Shown: positions 9,051 through 15,828, numbered from the stretch's first letter. The stretch: DNA of 64,000 bases from Promethearchaeota archaeon (GCA_048938855.1 JBHLLT010000012.1:22297-86296), one strand, 5' to 3'. Made by a program: numbers and translations. Notes: generated by a model from the letters alone, not told the origin.

Positions 9051-10205
9051 TTATATTTTTGGAGCAATAGCAGAATCTGGGTTAACTACTTTTTGAAGCA
9101 TTTTAAATGCTTTTTGAGATGTTGAAAAAGTTTTAGCATTGTATTTTTTTATTATATCCTTGATTTCTTCATCAAAAATTCTTACGAACAACTCAATATG
9201 GGGATAACGTAGATTCAATTTATAAGTAAGATAAATTGCCTCGTCAAATTCTGATTCTCGTTTCCAACAAATAAAAACTTGAGTCACTTCCTCTAAGTTT
9301 ACATGGGCTCGTAAATCACTTAAAAAACGGGCAAACTCATTGTACAAGTGTAATTTTTCATTTTTTACAAATTCAATACCACTATTAACATCATCAAAAA
9401 GATAGACTTCTCGATCTAGTTCTTGAGAAATATGATGCGCTATTCGATGAGTCAAACTATCTCTCCCAATTACAATTGCTTTACCTGCTTTATTTTTTGT
9501 CCATTCGTGAATATTATCCATAGCCCATTTAGACGTTGAGAACGAATATGCTTTTAATGGGGGATTCTTAAGGTATTCTTGTACATGATCTTCAAACGCT
9601 CTAACATAAATAGCACAATCTGGATTAATTTTGCGAATTTTTTCAGTACATATTATTGCGGTTCTTACATCATTAATATTAATAAAAACTTCCTTAGCAT
9701 TTTTAGCATTTGCCCAATTGAGGTTCACTGTCTCAGTGGCATCTCCAATCACTATTGGACGCCCTGCATTAATTAAATCTTCTACTGCTTCTTCGTCATC
9801 CTCAATAAGGCAAAATTGCTTTTTATTTTCAATACAATATTCTAAAATTCTCTCAGATAGATGATGATATCCAATTATTACAGCATGATTTCTTTTATGC
9901 GAAGCGAGAATTCTGCAAGTTACAACAGGATTATACTTTTCTAATAATTCTCCAATGATAAAACCAAAAACAATTACCTCTAATAATATCGGCCAAAGTA
10001 AAGCATATAAATTTGCAAAATCACTTGCATCTGTGGGAGAACGTACAGTTAAAGAATATAAGAAAATGATCCCTATATTTTGACCAGATTCTGTAATAAA
10101 AAAGAATAGAAATCCACAAAACCAAAAAAGAAAGAGAAATATAAAAGCTAACTTGTATTGTTTGAGTTTGAGTCGGAATTCAATGAAAAAGTTTACTAAT
10201 TTCAT
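9051..10205 (-). CDS. Membrane protein with two TrkA-N/RCK domains (K+ channel-like, no GYG filter)
   Basis: N-terminal TM helices, then NHAVIIGY...IVIGDAT Rossmann fold and a second KAIVIGR...FVRIFD domain. Confidence 0.75.
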   Translation of the reverse strand: MKLVNFFIEFRLKLKQYKLAFIFLFLFWFCGFLFFFITESGQNIGIIFLYSLTVRSPTDASDFANLYALLWPILLEVIVFGFIIGELLEKYNPVVTCRILASHKRNHAVIIGYHHLSERILEYCIENKKQFCLIEDDEEAVEDLINAGRPIVIGDATETVNLNWANAKNAKEVFININDVRTAIICTEKIRKINPDCAIYVRAFEDHVQEYLKNPPLKAYSFSTSKWAMDNIHEWTKNKAGKAIVIGRDSLTHRIAHHISQELDREVYLFDDVNSGIEFVKNEKLHLYNEFARFLSDLRAHVNLEEVTQVFICWKRESEFDEAIYLTYKLNLRYPHIELFVRIFDEEIKDIIKKYNAKTFSTSQKAFKMLQKVVNPDSAIAPKI

Positions 10206-10257
10206 AACTTAAGATAAAACAATCTTGTATAAAAAAGATTTGATCTATTATTATAGT

Positions 10258-12102
10258 CTAACGAGAGTTATCAGTTTCTACAGTTACTTCTCCGTCAATT
10301 TCAAGTAATTTTGAGCCACATACCTCGCAATAAGCTGGTGTTCCCCCCATTATTTTTCTAACAAGTTCTACTGGCAAGTTTCCTTGACATTCAGGGCAAT
10401 TTTGCGGATTAATTGAATTTTCAAATTCAGACATAATAGAGGGAGTCATATCCTCATCCTCAGCAAAGATATCCACTTTTAAAACAGTTAATTGCTCATC
10501 TTTATTGCCAGTTAGAGTCAATAATAACCCTACAGAATGTTTACTAAAAGTCCCTTCGGCATAACCTTTGATGAATCCATGGAAGTTTCCCTCTGATACT
10601 TGTTTTTTAGTATCTATGATTGCAAAATTCTTCCTTTTTAAAAGTATAGATAACCTCTGATATAATTGATCAGCATTGTATGGAATTGTAAATTCTTGCC
10701 CAATTTTTTTGAATGTAAGAAGATCTTTGGTGAGATTTTCAAAATCTTCATTTGACACTTTTTTTGGCCTTAATAGCCCACATATCATTCTAATCTCGTG
10801 TGGTTCTACATTGATGGTATCGATCTGATCTTTTTCATTAATAAAATTAACTACAGCATGAACAGTTCCCTTTATACAATCTTTTTTTGGCTTAAATACA
10901 AAAGTGGGACTTACAAATCCTCCACCTTTTGAAATTTTATGAAATTTTGCACTGTCAGGGGAAAATTGTGGATGTCCATCTACACGTGATAAAATCAGAC
11001 TTTCCTCTGGATATGAAAGTATATTTATATTGATATTAGTGATATTAAATTTTCTGTTATTAATAACCTTGATTTTAAAGAAGTATTCACCTCCCTCAAT
11101 CTGCCCGCCCCTAAGAACACGAATATCTTGGGATTTCATTTCTGGTTTAATGTGAAGTATTTTTGAATCTGAACTAATCTCCACTTGAGTTTTATTTGAA
11201 GTTTCAATAATTCTTTCTGTTTTGAGAGTTTGGGGTTCTGGTTTTGGAGTTACTTTACTTGGCATTTCAATGATATCTCCTTTATCACCTTTAACTAATT
11301 TGAAAAGAGTGATTTTATTTTTAGAAGCGGCAACTAAAAACATATTGTTTTCTTGTTCTGTAGAGATAGTGTATGCATCAAGACATTGTGTTTTTATCCC
11401 AATTTTATGGTTACCAATAACTTCTTTATTTAAATTAATAGCATTTAGGAAACCGTTTTTATCTCCCACAATTAAAATTGGTTGGTTATAAATGTTACAA
11501 AAAGTTAAGCATGTAGGTTGATACTCTAATTCAAAAACTAATTCTGAATCTATATCGTTTATTACATTAAGAATTTTCCCTGATTTAAGTAATATAAAGA
11601 TTTTTTTTGTTATCTTATCAGAAAAATAGCCAATAGTGCAATCCATAATGGGTTCTGGGGCTTTAAATTCGAGAAATTTTTCTCCTTCATTATCCAGTCC
11701 AATTAATCGTTGATTTTCTAAACCAACTATTATTTCATCTCTAATATCATCTTTTAAATCCCCAGTTTCCATACAAATTACTGGAGAATTTAAGTTTGTC
11801 GACCAAATTGGATTTCCATTATTATCCATTACATAGATACTCCCATCTAATGAACCTGAGATTAATTCAATATTATTTTGTCTGCTAACAGATGCTATTT
11901 TAAAACTTGTTATGGTCGAGGAAAATTCCGTAATAAAAACTTCATTTCCTTCAAGATCAAAAGCTTTTATTTCTGCACTAAATGAACAACCAATTATTTC
12001 AGGTTCTTGATCGCCTAAAAGATTTGCAATTATACAGGAATAGACATTTTTTTGAAATTGACGAACCCAAAGTGGTTGTAGTTTAATATATTGCAGTGTC
12101 AT
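10258..12102 (-). CDS. Beta-propeller plus adaptin-ear (GAE)-like Ig domain, platform domain and Zn ribbon protein
   Basis: FG-GAP/WD-like blades (ANLLGDQEPEIIG, ELISGSLDGSIY, GDLKDDIRDEIIVG), linker, beta sandwich, LRPKKVSNEDF platform entry, CPEC...CEVCG. Confidence 0.6.
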   Translation of the reverse strand: MTLQYIKLQPLWVRQFQKNVYSCIIANLLGDQEPEIIGCSFSAEIKAFDLEGNEVFITEFSSTITSFKIASVSRQNNIELISGSLDGSIYVMDNNGNPIWSTNLNSPVICMETGDLKDDIRDEIIVGLENQRLIGLDNEGEKFLEFKAPEPIMDCTIGYFSDKITKKIFILLKSGKILNVINDIDSELVFELEYQPTCLTFCNIYNQPILIVGDKNGFLNAINLNKEVIGNHKIGIKTQCLDAYTISTEQENNMFLVAASKNKITLFKLVKGDKGDIIEMPSKVTPKPEPQTLKTERIIETSNKTQVEISSDSKILHIKPEMKSQDIRVLRGGQIEGGEYFFKIKVINNRKFNITNININILSYPEESLILSRVDGHPQFSPDSAKFHKISKGGGFVSPTFVFKPKKDCIKGTVHAVVNFINEKDQIDTINVEPHEIRMICGLLRPKKVSNEDFENLTKDLLTFKKIGQEFTIPYNADQLYQRLSILLKRKNFAIIDTKKQVSEGNFHGFIKGYAEGTFSKHSVGLLLTLTGNKDEQLTVLKVDIFAEDEDMTPSIMSEFENSINPQNCPECQGNLPVELVRKIMGGTPAYCEVCGSKLLEIDGEVTVETDNSR

Positions 12103-12253
12103 GTCAGATCTTAATTTGAAAAATTCGATTTAATTTCAATATTATATAAATTGATTTTATCATAAAAATAAATCTCATAGATTAAATTACTATCCTATTA
12201 CATCAATAATAAAAAAAAGAGAATTTAGAATAATTTTTTCAGTTTTCATATTA

Positions 12254-12715
12254 TTAAGGCTTTTCTTCGGCGTCTTCTTTGACTTTCTTTACTAATTTTT
12301 TAAAAGCTTGCGTTAAATTTCCTAATTCAGGGTCTTGTTCCTCCAATTCTTTATCAAAATCCGTATCTATCTCTTTAAAAGATACAGTTTTAAGATCATG
12401 GGTACATAATTTTAATGCTATGTTTGTTAATTTATGGATCGGATTTACTATTGAATCAGCAAGTTTCAAGCCCACAAAAAGACTTATTACAATAATTTGC
12501 CATAGTGAGATAAATATAATTGCTATTTCTATCTCAAGAGTTTCAGTGATTATTGTCTGATCCTCCGGTGTAGCGCCAACAATATTGGCACCAATAATCT
12601 CATTAAATATTGCAGCTGTAATTGCAATACTCCCTAATGCAATAAAACAAACTACAACGAAGCTCAGAAGAATTTCTTGCCTAATTCCGAATTTTCTTTT
12701 TTTTTGTTGAGCCAT
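12254..12715 (-). CDS. Stand-alone 2TM-HAMP protein
   Basis: Two TM helices, then IVNPIHKLTNIALKL...ELGNLTQAFKKL HAMP; no output domain. Confidence 0.8.
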   Translation of the reverse strand: MAQQKKRKFGIRQEILLSFVVVCFIALGSIAITAAIFNEIIGANIVGATPEDQTIITETLEIEIAIIFISLWQIIVISLFVGLKLADSIVNPIHKLTNIALKLCTHDLKTVSFKEIDTDFDKELEEQDPELGNLTQAFKKLVKKVKEDAEEKP

Positions 12716-12717
12716 CT

Positions 12718-14442
12718 TTATCCCTCCTCCGGTACAAAACCTTCAATTTCTGATGAAGCCATAATTTCCTTCACTTTTGTAAAAGCTTCTGCAATTCGTT
12801 TTGAAACATTTTTTATAGAATAGATAGTAATATATTTACCATGTGGAGTTGCAGCAACCATTTGTGTCATTGTTCGATGAACTTTTTTTAGTTCTGGTCC
12901 AACACCAATTAATATAAAATTGATGGGAGGTTCTATTTTTTCGATGTATTTTGCAACTTTGCGAGAATTATACTTTGTACTTTTATTATCTTCACCATCA
13001 GTAAGAGTTACAACCCATCTCTGACGTTCTTGAGATTCTTGCTCTGAGCGAGGTGATTTTTCCAATAAAATATCTATCGCATTGCCTATCGCATCATATA
13101 AACAAGTCTGATAAGGACTAGCCTCCATCGTTTTAAATATATTTGTAATTTGCGAAACATTGCCTTTTTTCTCTGTCAAATCAAGAAGTATATTTATCAT
13201 AGAATTAAAACCAAGGATTGCAATTCGATCTCCAATATTTATTGTTTCATTAAAAACTCCCAAAGCTCCTGTTCGAGCCGCTCCCATTTTATCAAATTGA
13301 GTCATGCTTCCAGATTGATCAATTACAAAAACTACATCTTTTTTACGTACTAGTATTTCGTCTACTTTGGAAAGTTCAAGCTCTGCTTTATGGTATAGAG
13401 TTGTATTATCTTGACTTTCATATAATTGTACCATTGCTTCAAGGATATTTTTCATTAAAGGATAATTTCCAAGGTTTTCTGCTAATTTCAAAGCATTTTT
13501 TAAATGATCTTCTGCAATCTCAGGATTATTTTTTAACAAAGTTAGTCTCCCTAATTGAAACTCATCTTCTGCTAAACCTGAATTATTTTCCCATTTACTA
13601 TCAAGTTTAAATGCCTCATCAAGTTGTTCTTGAGCAAGATTTAATTCATTTTTTAACATATATAATACTCCTATATTTCTATTTCTTGAAGCAATTCCCA
13701 CTTCATCTCCCAACTCATTATCTATTTCAAGAGCTTTGTTAAAATCCTCCATTGCTTCTTGCCATTGTTCTTCTGAAAGAAAAAGAAGAGCACGATTATT
13801 ATACCTAGAACTTAATGATCCAATATCTTCCTGTTCTTCACCAATTTTAATTGACTTATTATAACTTTCCTTTGCTTTATCATAATCTCCCCAATTGCGA
13901 TAAATGTTTCCAAGGTTATTTAAACACATTCCCTCCCCATGAAGATTTTTTGTTGTTTGAAATAACTCTAATGCAGCATTATAATTTCTGAATGCAAGGG
14001 TCATATTACCTTGATAATAACTTTTGTTTCCCAAACGCATTGTAACCAATAAACTCTGAAAAGATTGAGCAAGTACACCGATTTCATTTCTTCTCATTCT
14101 TCCACTCATAGGAATTTCTTGAGTGAGATCTCCTTGAGATATTTGTTCTATTGAATTTGTTAAATCAATAATAGGAGATGTAATTCTTCGAGAGATGCCA
14201 TTTACAGCAAAAAAAATCACAATAGTGGTAATTATAGCAACAATAATAATTGTAATGATCAACGGGCTTTTTAATGTTTCAAGTGAGGTATACCCTAATC
14301 CAATAAAATAGTCAATATTTGTTAATAATTGAAATGCTAAGAAAACTGTTAAAAGCATGAATGGAATTAAGATGCATGCAATCATAATTATAAAGAGCCT
14401 TTGTCGCAATGACCTTTTTTTTCTTATTTCTCTAACTTCCAT
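12718..14442 (-). CDS. 2TM-HAMP-TPR-vWA receptor-like protein
   Basis: HAMP (ITSPIIDLT..QGDL..NEIGVLAQSF), about 5-6 TPRs (CLNNLGNIY, YNNRAL, NRNIGVLY), vWA MIDAS DQSGS / T.LYDAI / TLTDGEDN. Confidence 0.88.
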   Translation of the reverse strand: MEVREIRKKRSLRQRLFIIMIACILIPFMLLTVFLAFQLLTNIDYFIGLGYTSLETLKSPLIITIIIVAIITTIVIFFAVNGISRRITSPIIDLTNSIEQISQGDLTQEIPMSGRMRRNEIGVLAQSFQSLLVTMRLGNKSYYQGNMTLAFRNYNAALELFQTTKNLHGEGMCLNNLGNIYRNWGDYDKAKESYNKSIKIGEEQEDIGSLSSRYNNRALLFLSEEQWQEAMEDFNKALEIDNELGDEVGIASRNRNIGVLYMLKNELNLAQEQLDEAFKLDSKWENNSGLAEDEFQLGRLTLLKNNPEIAEDHLKNALKLAENLGNYPLMKNILEAMVQLYESQDNTTLYHKAELELSKVDEILVRKKDVVFVIDQSGSMTQFDKMGAARTGALGVFNETINIGDRIAILGFNSMINILLDLTEKKGNVSQITNIFKTMEASPYQTCLYDAIGNAIDILLEKSPRSEQESQERQRWVVTLTDGEDNKSTKYNSRKVAKYIEKIEPPINFILIGVGPELKKVHRTMTQMVAATPHGKYITIYSIKNVSKRIAEAFTKVKEIMASSEIEGFVPEEG

Positions 14443-14475
14443 TTTCTTCTTTCCCTCTTATTTTTCTTATAAAAA

Positions 14476-15195
14476 TCAAATTCCTTTATCAATACCTTCA
14501 TATATCAGAAATATTGATGTAAAAATAGAAGCTTTAACTATAGCTAAACCAATCAGTGGGAGATTAGAAACACCTGCATCAATAATTCCGAAAAGAGAGA
14601 CAAACATTACTCCAATACCCATTGAATATCTCCTCCATTTCACACTTTTGTTCTCTAAAGTTATTCCTGAATGAAGAATAGCAGGTCCCAGAATTACCAT
14701 CATAATTACCAACACCACCCCTAATAATGCTAATGCTGCCCCTTTAATTCCTGTTGACGGCAAACCTCCGGGTGATGCTTCCCAAGAAGTAAAAGCTGAT
14801 GGATTGGAATAAATCAAAACAGCGAAAATTAAACTCAATATTGCTACTATACTCGTAATTGGGATTTTATAACGACCGCTTTTAAATAAATCTGAGGCAA
14901 TATATGCCCAAATTGTTCCACCCAAAGCAGGCCCCCAAGCATATCCTAAAACCGCTATATTCGGACCTAATGGGGGAAATCCGAATACCATAAGTAAAAA
15001 ACTTGCAGAGACCCCAAACCATGCATGAAAAACTGATAATAAACCAATTCCACTTAATATTAATCTTTTTTTAACTTTTATATCAGTTGCTTTTCTAGCA
15101 TATTTAAAAATTAGGATAAAAGCTAAAATATAACCAGCAACAGTAATTTCTAGACCTGTAAGTCCATTTATTATATCAATATTTGGAAGAGCCAT
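14476..15195 (-). CDS. 7TM membrane protein (HisKA_7TM-like sensor, no cytoplasmic output domain)
   Basis: Seven hydrophobic segments in 239 aa. Confidence 0.65.
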   Translation of the reverse strand: MALPNIDIINGLTGLEITVAGYILAFILIFKYARKATDIKVKKRLILSGIGLLSVFHAWFGVSASFLLMVFGFPPLGPNIAVLGYAWGPALGGTIWAYIASDLFKSGRYKIPITSIVAILSLIFAVLIYSNPSAFTSWEASPGGLPSTGIKGAALALLGVVLVIMMVILGPAILHSGITLENKSVKWRRYSMGIGVMFVSLFGIIDAGVSNLPLIGLAIVKASIFTSIFLIYEGIDKGI

Positions 15196-15305
15196 TTATG
15201 TTAACACCCCTTATTTACATGAACATCTATAATTAAAATTTTTTTATTAATAATTTTTTTAAACTGCAACCTATATTTTGAAGAATTATTATATAAATTT
15301 GGTAC

Positions 15306-15530
15306 ATAGGTATTAGTGGCAAAGCAGAATATTTTGGTGGCAAAGTTCCCACAATTATGGCTAATTCTCCATTTTGGATGCAGAAAGTACTTAGAGATTA
15401 TCATCATAAAAAAAAAAATTTTGATCTAAGTGACAGTTTACATATTATTAATGGAGGTGGTGGCTGGGATGGCACTTAAAGTCGTATTAAGTTGGGACAT
15501 CATGTAAATAAGTCAGATTTTGCTGAACAT
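15306..15530 (+). pseudogene. Decayed internal fragment of the luxE-like gene (copy of about 19186-19432)
   Basis: Clear nucleotide similarity (ttcccacaattatggctaattctcca, ttttgatctaagtga, ttaagttgggacatcatgtaaataag) with indels and stops. Confidence 0.85.
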
Positions 15531-15828
15531 TTGAGCCAAATCGTATTCTGGTTCAGTGATAAGAAAGAAAATGAAGCTAATAAACCAAAATAGAAAGAAA
15601 AAAGTAAACTGTAGCATATATTAATTGAGTTTAAGATAGATTCTGATAAATAAATTTAGGAGATTCATACATAAATAAAACACATCAATATAAAAAGATA
15701 TAATCAGATAAACTTTTCTAAAATAATTATTATGGAACTCTTTATTCATTAATTGTAATACATTTCCCATGCTCAAATCGAGATATAAAAATAAAGATTT
15801 GAATAAAACAAAAATATAAATTCATATA

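Follow-up and report, generated by a model that had tools for sequence, protein, structure and literature searches.

Genes of the locus and their products

The window analysed here is a stretch of 64,000 nucleotides (nt) from a metagenome-assembled genome (MAG) of Lokiarchaeia (Promethearchaeota; GCA_048938855.1, JBHLLT010000012.1:22297-86296), with a GC content of about 30%. Between positions 9,051 and 15,195 its minus strand carries a run of five open reading frames (ORFs; Table 1), separated by 33, 2, 151 and 52 nt. We refer to their products as TM7 (the seven-transmembrane, 7TM, protein), HTV (HAMP-TPR-vWA receptor), sHAMP (a short, HAMP-only paralog of HTV), PROP (beta-propeller/zinc-ribbon protein) and the RCK protein. 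Our interpretation, held with a confidence slightly above even, is that the first four make up a heteromeric membrane receptor module, which derives from a three-gene Asgard cassette and whose output would be metal-dependent protein recruitment. ORF calls and Pfam searches agree with an earlier note on this DNA as to the five genes, their gaps and their domains. As that note had also stated, domain searches of the encoded proteins found no kinase, cyclase, phosphodiesterase or methyl-accepting chemotaxis protein (MCP) domain in the five-gene cluster.

Table 1. Features of the locus, with positions counted from the first nucleotide of the window
Feature	Position	Strand	Description
TM7	14476..15195	-	239 aa; orphan seven-helix membrane protein; AlphaFold2 (AF2)
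HTV	12718..14442	-	574 aa; two transmembrane (TM) helices, HAMP, TPR, cytoplasmic vWA with intact MIDAS; Pfam
HTV HAMP	14047..14196	-	residues 83-132, directly after TM2; PF00672, E 3.4e-9
HTV TPR region	13393..14034	-	residues ~137-350; Pfam TPR_12, TPR_1, TPR_2
HTV vWA	12829..13338	-	residues 369-538; PF00092, PF13519
sHAMP	12254..12715	-	153 aa; two TM helices and HAMP only; HTV paralog
sHAMP-PROP spacer	12103..12253	-	151 nt; direct reading
PROP	10258..12102	-	614 aa
PROP propeller	11275..12102	-	residues 1-276, seven-bladed; AF2 model
PROP beta-sandwich and alpha/beta platform	10462..11124	-	residues 327-547, appendage-like; AF2 secondary structure
PROP zinc ribbon	10303..10407	-	residues 566-600, C-terminal CxxC...CxxC
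RCK protein	9051..10205	-	384 aa, two TM helices, TrkA_N; neighbour, judged non-member

The second TM helix of HTV (TM2) spans residues 62-82. The TPR region opens with the family-wide motif R-L-G-N-x-x-Y-Y-x-G, in which R136, G138 and N139 are invariant. The residues of the metal-ion-dependent adhesion site (MIDAS) of the vWA domain, D375, S377, S379, T446 and D482 (DxSxS...T...D), do not vary among 16 diverse homologs with identities as low as 27%, nor among 46 more distant representatives. sHAMP has no Pfam match; it matches TM2-HAMP regions of histidine kinases, and its long homologs match PF00672. Its HAMP motifs are canonical (P...E-L-G-x-L-x-x-A-F), with NPIHKL and PELGNLTQAF following TM2. 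Both HTV and sHAMP show the features of HAMP receptors, namely HAMP directly after the second TM helix, a conserved proline in amphipathic sequence 1 (AS1) and an E-x-G-x-L-x-x-x-F pattern in AS2. Their external loops amount to ~20-25 residues, and the remark that these proteins have almost no extracellular loop is correct. sHAMP is paralogous to the N-terminal portion of HTV, and its HAMP connector is long and acidic; the HTV profile detects short forms of sHAMP at E values of ~1e-8 to 1e-10 and long forms at 1e-52 to 1e-80. Within the end of HTV, 6 nt ahead of the ATG of sHAMP, there is a Shine-Dalgarno-like GGAGGAGG. Together with the 2-nt gap it indicates that sHAMP is translationally coupled to HTV.

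For TM7, the AF2 model contains seven helices at a mean predicted local distance difference test (pLDDT) value of 91, in line with the original 7TM call, and the positive-inside rule gives an N-out/C-in topology. The family has no match in Pfam, NCBIfam or PADLOC. Fold searches returned generic G-protein-coupled receptor (GPCR)- or rhodopsin-like bundles with Z-scores of 11-13.5, within the range expected for helical bundles: the top match (Z 13.5) is a class C GPCR TM domain, and designed bundles, rhodopsins and PAQR proteins follow at Z 11-13. Foldseek also produced generic seven-helix matches only (E ~3e-4, template modelling score 0.45-0.59). HisKA_7TM, an Atlas lead for TM7 (0.88, 10% of members), was rejected, as hmmscan recovered it in just 1 of 37 members, at E 0.039.

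In PROP, Pfam places a propeller at residues 11-229, with weak matches to BBS2_Mid, BBS7 and Itfg2. In the AF2 model (pLDDT 72.5) the seven-bladed propeller is followed by a disordered linker, a beta-sandwich (residues 327-440), an alpha/beta platform (451-547) and a zinc ribbon, in which the cysteines C569, C572, C592 and C595 are invariant. When this model was compared with PDB by Foldseek, the best nine matches were to BBS9, BBS2, BBS7 and BBS1 (E 2e-17 to 5e-13, 540-683 aligned columns; 585-683 for BBS9, BBS2 and BBS7), with generic propellers scoring at ~1e-10. Rigid-body re-alignment superimposed the propeller only (Z ~24 to WD40 propellers) and put generic WD40 proteins, not BBS proteins, on top; the BBS resemblance therefore comes from the domains after the propeller. 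A profile search against PDB sequences gave only weak propeller matches (VPS15, ITFG2, BBS1 at E 0.025) and no sequence-level match to the GAE/platform domains of BBS proteins. A language-model search with residues 325-614 pointed to an alpha-adaptin appendage cluster (0.76, Atlas), which we take as a lead only. As for the 'adaptin ear' previously assigned to this protein, the model does place a beta-sandwich and an alpha/beta platform behind the propeller; the identity of the fold is less secure, resting on the full-length Foldseek result and the weak language-model lead.

The appendage-like part of the window's PROP is absent from PROP of other Loki families, and a zinc ribbon after the propeller is found also in Thor and short Loki forms. 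The C-terminal module of PROP has homologs (E 1e-60 to 1e-89) in a different Asgard family, where they make up a large multi-copy family. Members of this multi-copy family occur alone (~320-430 aa), at the end of ~760-aa proteins, and in proteins of 641 aa (seven TM helices) and 2463 aa (L031:2925-5210, L035:3761-6037, L032:2995-3966, L033:2996-4921, L034:856-8247). No Pfam match was found in the five members scanned, and the 7TM part of the 641-aa protein (L033) does not belong to the TM7 family. An Atlas cluster of ~758-aa proteins with this module is mostly from Thorarchaeota. In the spacer preceding PROP, a T8 run lies ~35 nt past the sHAMP stop codon, and the TATA-like TTTATATAAT is located ~40 nt before the PROP ATG. 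The cassette spacer before PROP measures 31-85 nt in other lineages versus 151 nt in the window.

The conserved cassette, its ancestral form and its relatives

Related genomes were searched for similar loci in steps (41, then 154, then 400 genomes), and the loci were cut out for comparison. The nearest relatives of the window belong to one GTDB genus despite inconsistent NCBI labels. Within this single genus the labels (L042-L057) read Thorarchaeota, Hermodarchaeota, Hodarchaeota, Lokiarchaeota or Promethearchaeota and are unreliable for phyletic counts. The 12 loci collected from four families of the window's order have only HTV, sHAMP and PROP in common, with TM7 present in some, and an all-against-all comparison of their flanks found no conserved neighbours beyond the cassette genes. 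HTV and sHAMP are always adjacent, with gaps of 2-15 nt, and in the window's order PROP lies just downstream of every HTV that has enough contig. In both loci of the Sigynarchaeum-type family a gene for a glycoside hydrolase of family GH2 is located just past the cassette (L017:2570-4384, L018:11163-12998), which may be local synteny only.

When each GTDB species, represented by one genome, was scanned with an HTV alignment, 282 relatives emerged; the counts that follow are for the best 80 of them. These 80 are all archaeal and come from Lokiarchaeia (including the complete genome of Ca. Lokiarchaeum ossiferum, and Ca. Sigynarchaeum), Ca. Hodarchaeum mangrovi, Heimdallarchaeota MAGs and many Thorarchaeota MAGs. 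sHAMP directly follows HTV in 75 of the 80 loci, and the remaining 5 end at contig edges. According to profile scans of ORFs, a PROP-type propeller gene is adjacent in ~57 of the 65 loci with room for it. Its position varies with the lineage: downstream in Loki, upstream on the same strand in all 36 Thor loci (36/36), and convergent in three loci of Hod. In the HTV tree the sequences cluster according to class (Loki, Thor, Hod/Heimdall). The gene-neighbourhood comparison proposed in the earlier note thus has a divided outcome, as HTV, sHAMP and PROP are co-located across Asgards and TM7 accompanies one form of the receptor, and the RCK gene does not belong to the conserved set. Inclusion of the propeller protein in the module gains support from its adjacency to HTV across three Asgard classes. 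The two HAMP proteins are supported as an obligate pair by being paralogs that are never separated and, as described below, lost the same domain jointly.

The window's version of the cassette is a reduced one. In the other families of its order, HTV is 870-960 aa and sHAMP 475-527 aa long, each with a dCache_1 domain between TM1 and TM2, and PROP consists of a 380-aa propeller and a zinc ribbon. One genome, G016, holds both long and short cassettes. Since dCache is present in both paralogs of the other families, and G016 has both forms, the window's version is derived. Sequence comparison thus indicates that the ancestral form had dCache in both HAMP proteins and that both copies were lost in the window's lineage; mixed forms, with dCache in one paralog only, were not seen. 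The cultured Ca. Lokiarchaeum ossiferum carries the ancestral cassette (CP104013.1, ~2.568-2.573 Mb; L062:4831-10201).

The distribution of TM7 follows the loss of dCache. Strong TM7 orthologs occur in exactly the 12 genomes with short HTV, directly upstream of HTV in 12/12, and NCBI locus-tag numbering indicates the same four-gene order in four further MAGs. In addition, there are two natural TM7+HTV fusions from independent sources, P0073 (808 aa, GCA_040961345.1) and P0074 (806 aa, JGI metagenome). Their TM7 parts are 43% identical to TM7 (E 5e-54 and 7e-65, respectively) and their HTV parts 52-53% identical to HTV. In the HTV tree they form the sister group of the split short forms, with a Shimodaira-Hasegawa-like approximate likelihood ratio test (SH-aLRT) value of 100. 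The predicted C-terminus of TM7 and the N-terminus of HTV are both cytoplasmic, so the fusion is topologically sound. The cassette is kept around the fusion in locus L037, which reads fusion, sHAMP, PROP. Judged from sequence, the two fusions argue strongly for direct coupling of TM7 and HTV. A link between the 7TM protein and the HAMP proteins, suggested from the start, is likewise favoured by the strict co-location of TM7 with the dCache-less receptor. We regard TM7 as a lineage-specific partner, and presumed input, of that receptor.

On a metagenome contig that also has a TM7+HTV fusion, sHAMP (191 aa, L036:10435-11010) ends in a PROP-like zinc ribbon with 33% identity to PROP residues 556-600; no PROP gene follows it there, the next gene being a GH9 gene on the opposite strand. 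Distant paralogs of TM7 (~235-250 aa, seven TM helices, E 1e-9 to 1e-16 to the TM7 profile) are encoded in other genomes of the window's order (L028:3626-6715, L030:2122-4021, L026:5995-9983, L025:5444-6619). They adjoin genes for Ras-family small GTPases (349-350 aa), directly upstream and on the same strand in two of three syntenic loci, and one adjoins a gene for a longin-domain protein. The Ras-family neighbours could reflect a 7TM-GTPase link.

We also looked for the HAMP-TPR-vWA architecture beyond Asgards, as the earlier note had suggested, and found it in protist records. An HMMER search with the linker and vWA region of HTV against 1.84 billion representatives produced 85 proteins with E <1e-10, and 46 of the long ones were scanned for domains. 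VWA was detected in 46, TPR in 45, dCache_1 in 41 and HAMP, at the Pfam threshold, in 16. ANDGO_00932 of Andalucia godoyi has dCache, HAMP, TPR and VWA by Pfam and is 25% identical to a Loki long form over 739 collinear residues (E 9e-57). Homologs of HTV are likewise a Platysulcus tardus protein (E 7e-61) and a transcript of Fabrea salina (a Fabrea-like ciliate). The 90% cluster of the latter includes a metagenome contig on which the neighbours are RING, FHA, polycystin-domain and SF-assemblin genes. Protist and unassigned metagenome sequences are split from all Asgard sequences in the HTV tree (SH-aLRT 99). There were no bacterial members among the nameable matches; most metagenome matches are unassigned and may include bacterial ones. 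Contamination is a possible source of the protist records. A marine metagenome contig of 30% GC (L040:5089-9895; also L041) carries an HTV-like gene divergent from an sHAMP-like dCache paralog; after this pair comes a 642-aa gene without a Pfam match, and the neighbours include SWIB, E2 ubiquitin-conjugating and zinc-finger genes. Three points were missed in the first reading of the locus: the ancestral form is an ordinary-looking pair of dCache receptors, the module is Asgard-wide, and the receptor has protist homologs.

Proposed mechanism and competing explanations

The kinase-free membrane module originally proposed for this locus is upheld by these data. We infer that TM7 is responsible for sensing and the TPR-vWA part of HTV for recruitment. 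HTV and sHAMP would pair through HAMP as a heterodimer that has only one TPR-vWA arm; paralogy, the 2-15 nt gaps and the joint loss of dCache are the sequence features that suggest such a pair. TM7 would replace dCache as the input and signal laterally, via its TM helices, to the 2-TM helices of HTV and sHAMP. The resulting HAMP switch would alter the exposure of the TPR-vWA arm, and the intact MIDAS could then bind or release a partner in a metal-dependent manner. Among candidate partners of the vWA domain PROP is the likeliest, perhaps making contact by way of the zinc-ribbon end, since no other neighbour is conserved and the ribbon is in one case fused to sHAMP. PROP would offer its propeller, and in the window's lineage also the appendage-like domain, as a docking platform. 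The output would be regulated protein recruitment at the membrane, as opposed to phosphorylation or a second messenger.

Several observations weigh against this interpretation. In eight Heimdall-type loci with room for it, there is no propeller gene within 6 kb. The cassette is patchy in the window's order, where it was found in 26 of 154 genomes, and is therefore dispensable. TM7 has no recognisable ligand pocket or family and could be an anchor or a modulator instead of a sensor. The structural model of PROP is of moderate quality. Furthermore, the T8 run and the TATA-like TTTATATAAT may represent a terminator and a promoter of its own, in which case PROP could be transcribed separately here; T-runs and TATA-like motifs are common at 30% GC, so the spacer evidence is only suggestive. 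Pairwise BLAST between the window's sHAMP and HTV is not significant, and consequently their paralogy rests on profiles and the long forms. Finally, a heterodimer as opposed to two homodimers, the interactions between the partners and the existence of a ligand are all indirect deductions.

The strongest competitor, unlikely in our view yet deserving serious consideration, is a membrane-anchored structural or assembly scaffold, which would tether the TPR-vWA arm and the propeller without transducing any signal. The HAMP-like segment would then be a rigid linker and TM7 an extra anchor, with possible roles in assembly (of envelope, protrusions or vesicle-related structures) or in chaperoning or holding a client. 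Consistent with a scaffold are the lack of any enzymatic output, the use of vWA and TPR as general interaction modules, and the window's form of the receptor, which is without a recognisable ligand-binding domain. Sensor-less membrane-anchored vWA-TPR proteins do exist (Bat proteins; a weak BatC match was seen), and PROP resembles coat or adaptor proteins. However, the ancestral wiring is dCache-TM-HAMP in both paralogs, with dCache_1 in 41 of 46 family representatives, and canonical HAMP motifs directly follow TM2. Moreover, the lost dCache was replaced by a 7TM module, not by nothing.

We give little credence to an accessory conflict or defence-type module that spreads horizontally, in the manner of vWA-based immunity sensors. 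It would fit the patchy distribution and the variable-site appearance of the cassette, which adjoins a core gene in one orientation or the other, and some bacterial conflict systems do use vWA and TPR. On the other hand, the PADLOC scan gave only a generic TPR match for HTV and no match to a defence family. There is no NTPase, nuclease, protease or toxin-like gene in or beside the cassette, and integrases or repeats were not noted in the flanks. The grouping of the HTV tree by class is as expected under mainly vertical descent.

It is very improbable that the RCK protein belongs to a full five-gene system as its recruited or gated output. This protein is channel-like and has a TrkA_N domain at residues 109-213 (Pfam); it lacks an MthK-type K+ filter, having T-V-R-S-P where TVGYG would be. 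Its gene lies on the same strand, 52 nt from PROP, an arrangement repeated in G021 and G218, and it adjoins the cassette in several genomes, all of them of the closest species. However, 44 of 54 genomes of the genus carry it as a single-copy core gene, with or without the cassette, and only 10 of the genus's 53 other genomes have the cassette. Relative to RCK, the cassette has the opposite orientation in G016:C43 and G014:C81, and the two are on different contigs in G013 and G010. In no other family or class examined does RCK stand beside the cassette. Being a core gene that is found in both orientations or unlinked, RCK is thus a neighbour at a variable site and not a component. The proposal that the five genes form one system with an RCK member is accordingly rejected, and four genes form the module. 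The cassette flanks RCK in either orientation depending on the species, as at a recombination or variable site. At the other end, just upstream of TM7, a 68-aa ORF (window 15201-15540) has no convincing family.

True homology to a sensory rhodopsin and its transducers, with TM7 as a retinal photosensor, is hardly credible: the N-out/C-in seven-helix bundle, the microbial rhodopsins among its structural matches (Z 11-12), lysine K221 in helix 7 and the coupling to 2TM-HAMP proteins would agree with it, but K221 is an arginine in both fusions (P0073, P0074) and in one ortholog (P0284), so that a retinal Schiff base is excluded as a family feature, TM7 has no Bac_rhodopsin or other Pfam match, the structural matches are no better than those to GPCRs or designed bundles and lie within helical-bundle noise, and no MCP signalling domain follows HAMP.

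Relation to known systems and implications

In the HAMP receptors known to us, the terminal domain is that of a kinase, cyclase, phosphatase or MCP. The four-gene module belongs with HAMP transmembrane receptors, and its non-enzymatic output is of a kind not described for them. The sensory rhodopsin II/HtrII pair of haloarchaea offers a close analogy in wiring, with a 7TM protein devoid of soluble domains paired with a 2-TM-HAMP protein and, by our inference for the present module, lateral signalling between helices and non-enzymatic recruitment as output. The analogy drawn in the earlier note therefore survives for the wiring, and it fails for the photoreceptor and the output. TM7 has neither a conserved Schiff-base lysine nor a rhodopsin signature, the transducer is a pair of paralogs, and HAMP is followed by TPR-vWA or by nothing in place of an MCP domain, with no CheW/CheA. 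The ancestral form shares its input wiring, TM1-dCache_1-TM2-HAMP, with dCache-HAMP chemoreceptors and sensor kinases. It differs from them in its output, where TPR and a MIDAS vWA domain take the place of MCP, kinase, cyclase or phosphatase domains, and in the constant presence of an output-less paralog; the window's form has in addition lost dCache.

Two other groups of proteins combine vWA with domains seen here. Membrane vWA-TPR proteins of the Bat/MoxR type have a MIDAS vWA and TPR (BatB/BatC), and their vWA binds a partner protein. In contrast to them, the vWA domain of HTV is cytoplasmic and placed behind HAMP, and there are no MoxR or DUF58 genes in the flanks of the window or in the 12 related loci. 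The alpha2delta subunit also has a MIDAS vWA together with dCache, and its vWA acts by binding a partner, but both of its domains are extracellular and it has no HAMP or TPR.

PROP has a seven-bladed propeller in common with BBS2, BBS7 and BBS9 of the BBSome (and ITFG2), and the predicted beta-sandwich and alpha/beta platform behind it may correspond to the GAE and platform domains of the BBS proteins. The putative partner of PROP is TPR-rich, as are BBS4 and BBS8. Unlike BBSome subunits, PROP has a disordered linker and a zinc ribbon in place of a coiled coil or C-terminal helical domain. No BBS1/4/5/8/18 or Arl6 partners are encoded in the locus, and PROP of other lineages lacks the appendage-like part. 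An Asgard-eukaryote structural cluster 'BBS7/ITFG2' has already been listed in a 2026 preprint (10.64898/2026.10.28.762692). Archaeal ESCRT loci have been described as encoding adaptin-appendage proteins with an immunoglobulin (IG)-like beta-sandwich and a TATA-binding protein (TBP)-like platform, to which a zinc ribbon or an N-terminal WD40/PQQ propeller is sometimes added; a role as interaction hubs was proposed for them (Makarova et al. 2024, 10.1101/2024.02.06.579148). Compared with them by description, the present module has the HAMP pair instead of ESCRT genes: neither Vps4, ESCRT-III nor any other ESCRT gene was found in the flanks examined. As BBS-type and adaptin-appendage proteins are already published in Asgards, the fold types are not new; what is new is their link to a HAMP receptor pair. 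Literature on Asgards together with the BBSome, ITFG2, Cache domains, vWA or HAMP contained no description of the module.

A more far-reaching extension of the receptor interpretation, which we consider decidedly unlikely, is that the module is an Asgard forerunner of eukaryotic receptor-to-coat-adaptor coupling. The TPR-vWA arm of a dCache or 7TM receptor would recruit the BBS2/7/9-like PROP upon a signal, and the receptor family would have been vertically inherited by eukaryotes, as its jakobid, stramenopile and ciliate homologs would suggest. If this were true, the receptor would be an unrecognised eukaryotic signature protein tied to the origins of the BBSome or protocoatomer.

The window's lineage represents a clean exchange of sensors, from dCache to 7TM, for which both split and fused forms exist. 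The presence of the ancestral cassette in the cultured Ca. Lokiarchaeum ossiferum makes the module testable. Since homologs of the receptor occur in protist records and its putative partner is most like BBSome subunits, the module bears on the origin of receptor-adaptor coupling at membranes. A large conserved family of receptors that end in TPR and a MIDAS vWA domain, invariably accompanied by an output-less paralog and in most cases also by a coat-like propeller protein, points to a recruitment-based signalling logic in the closest prokaryotic relatives of eukaryotes.

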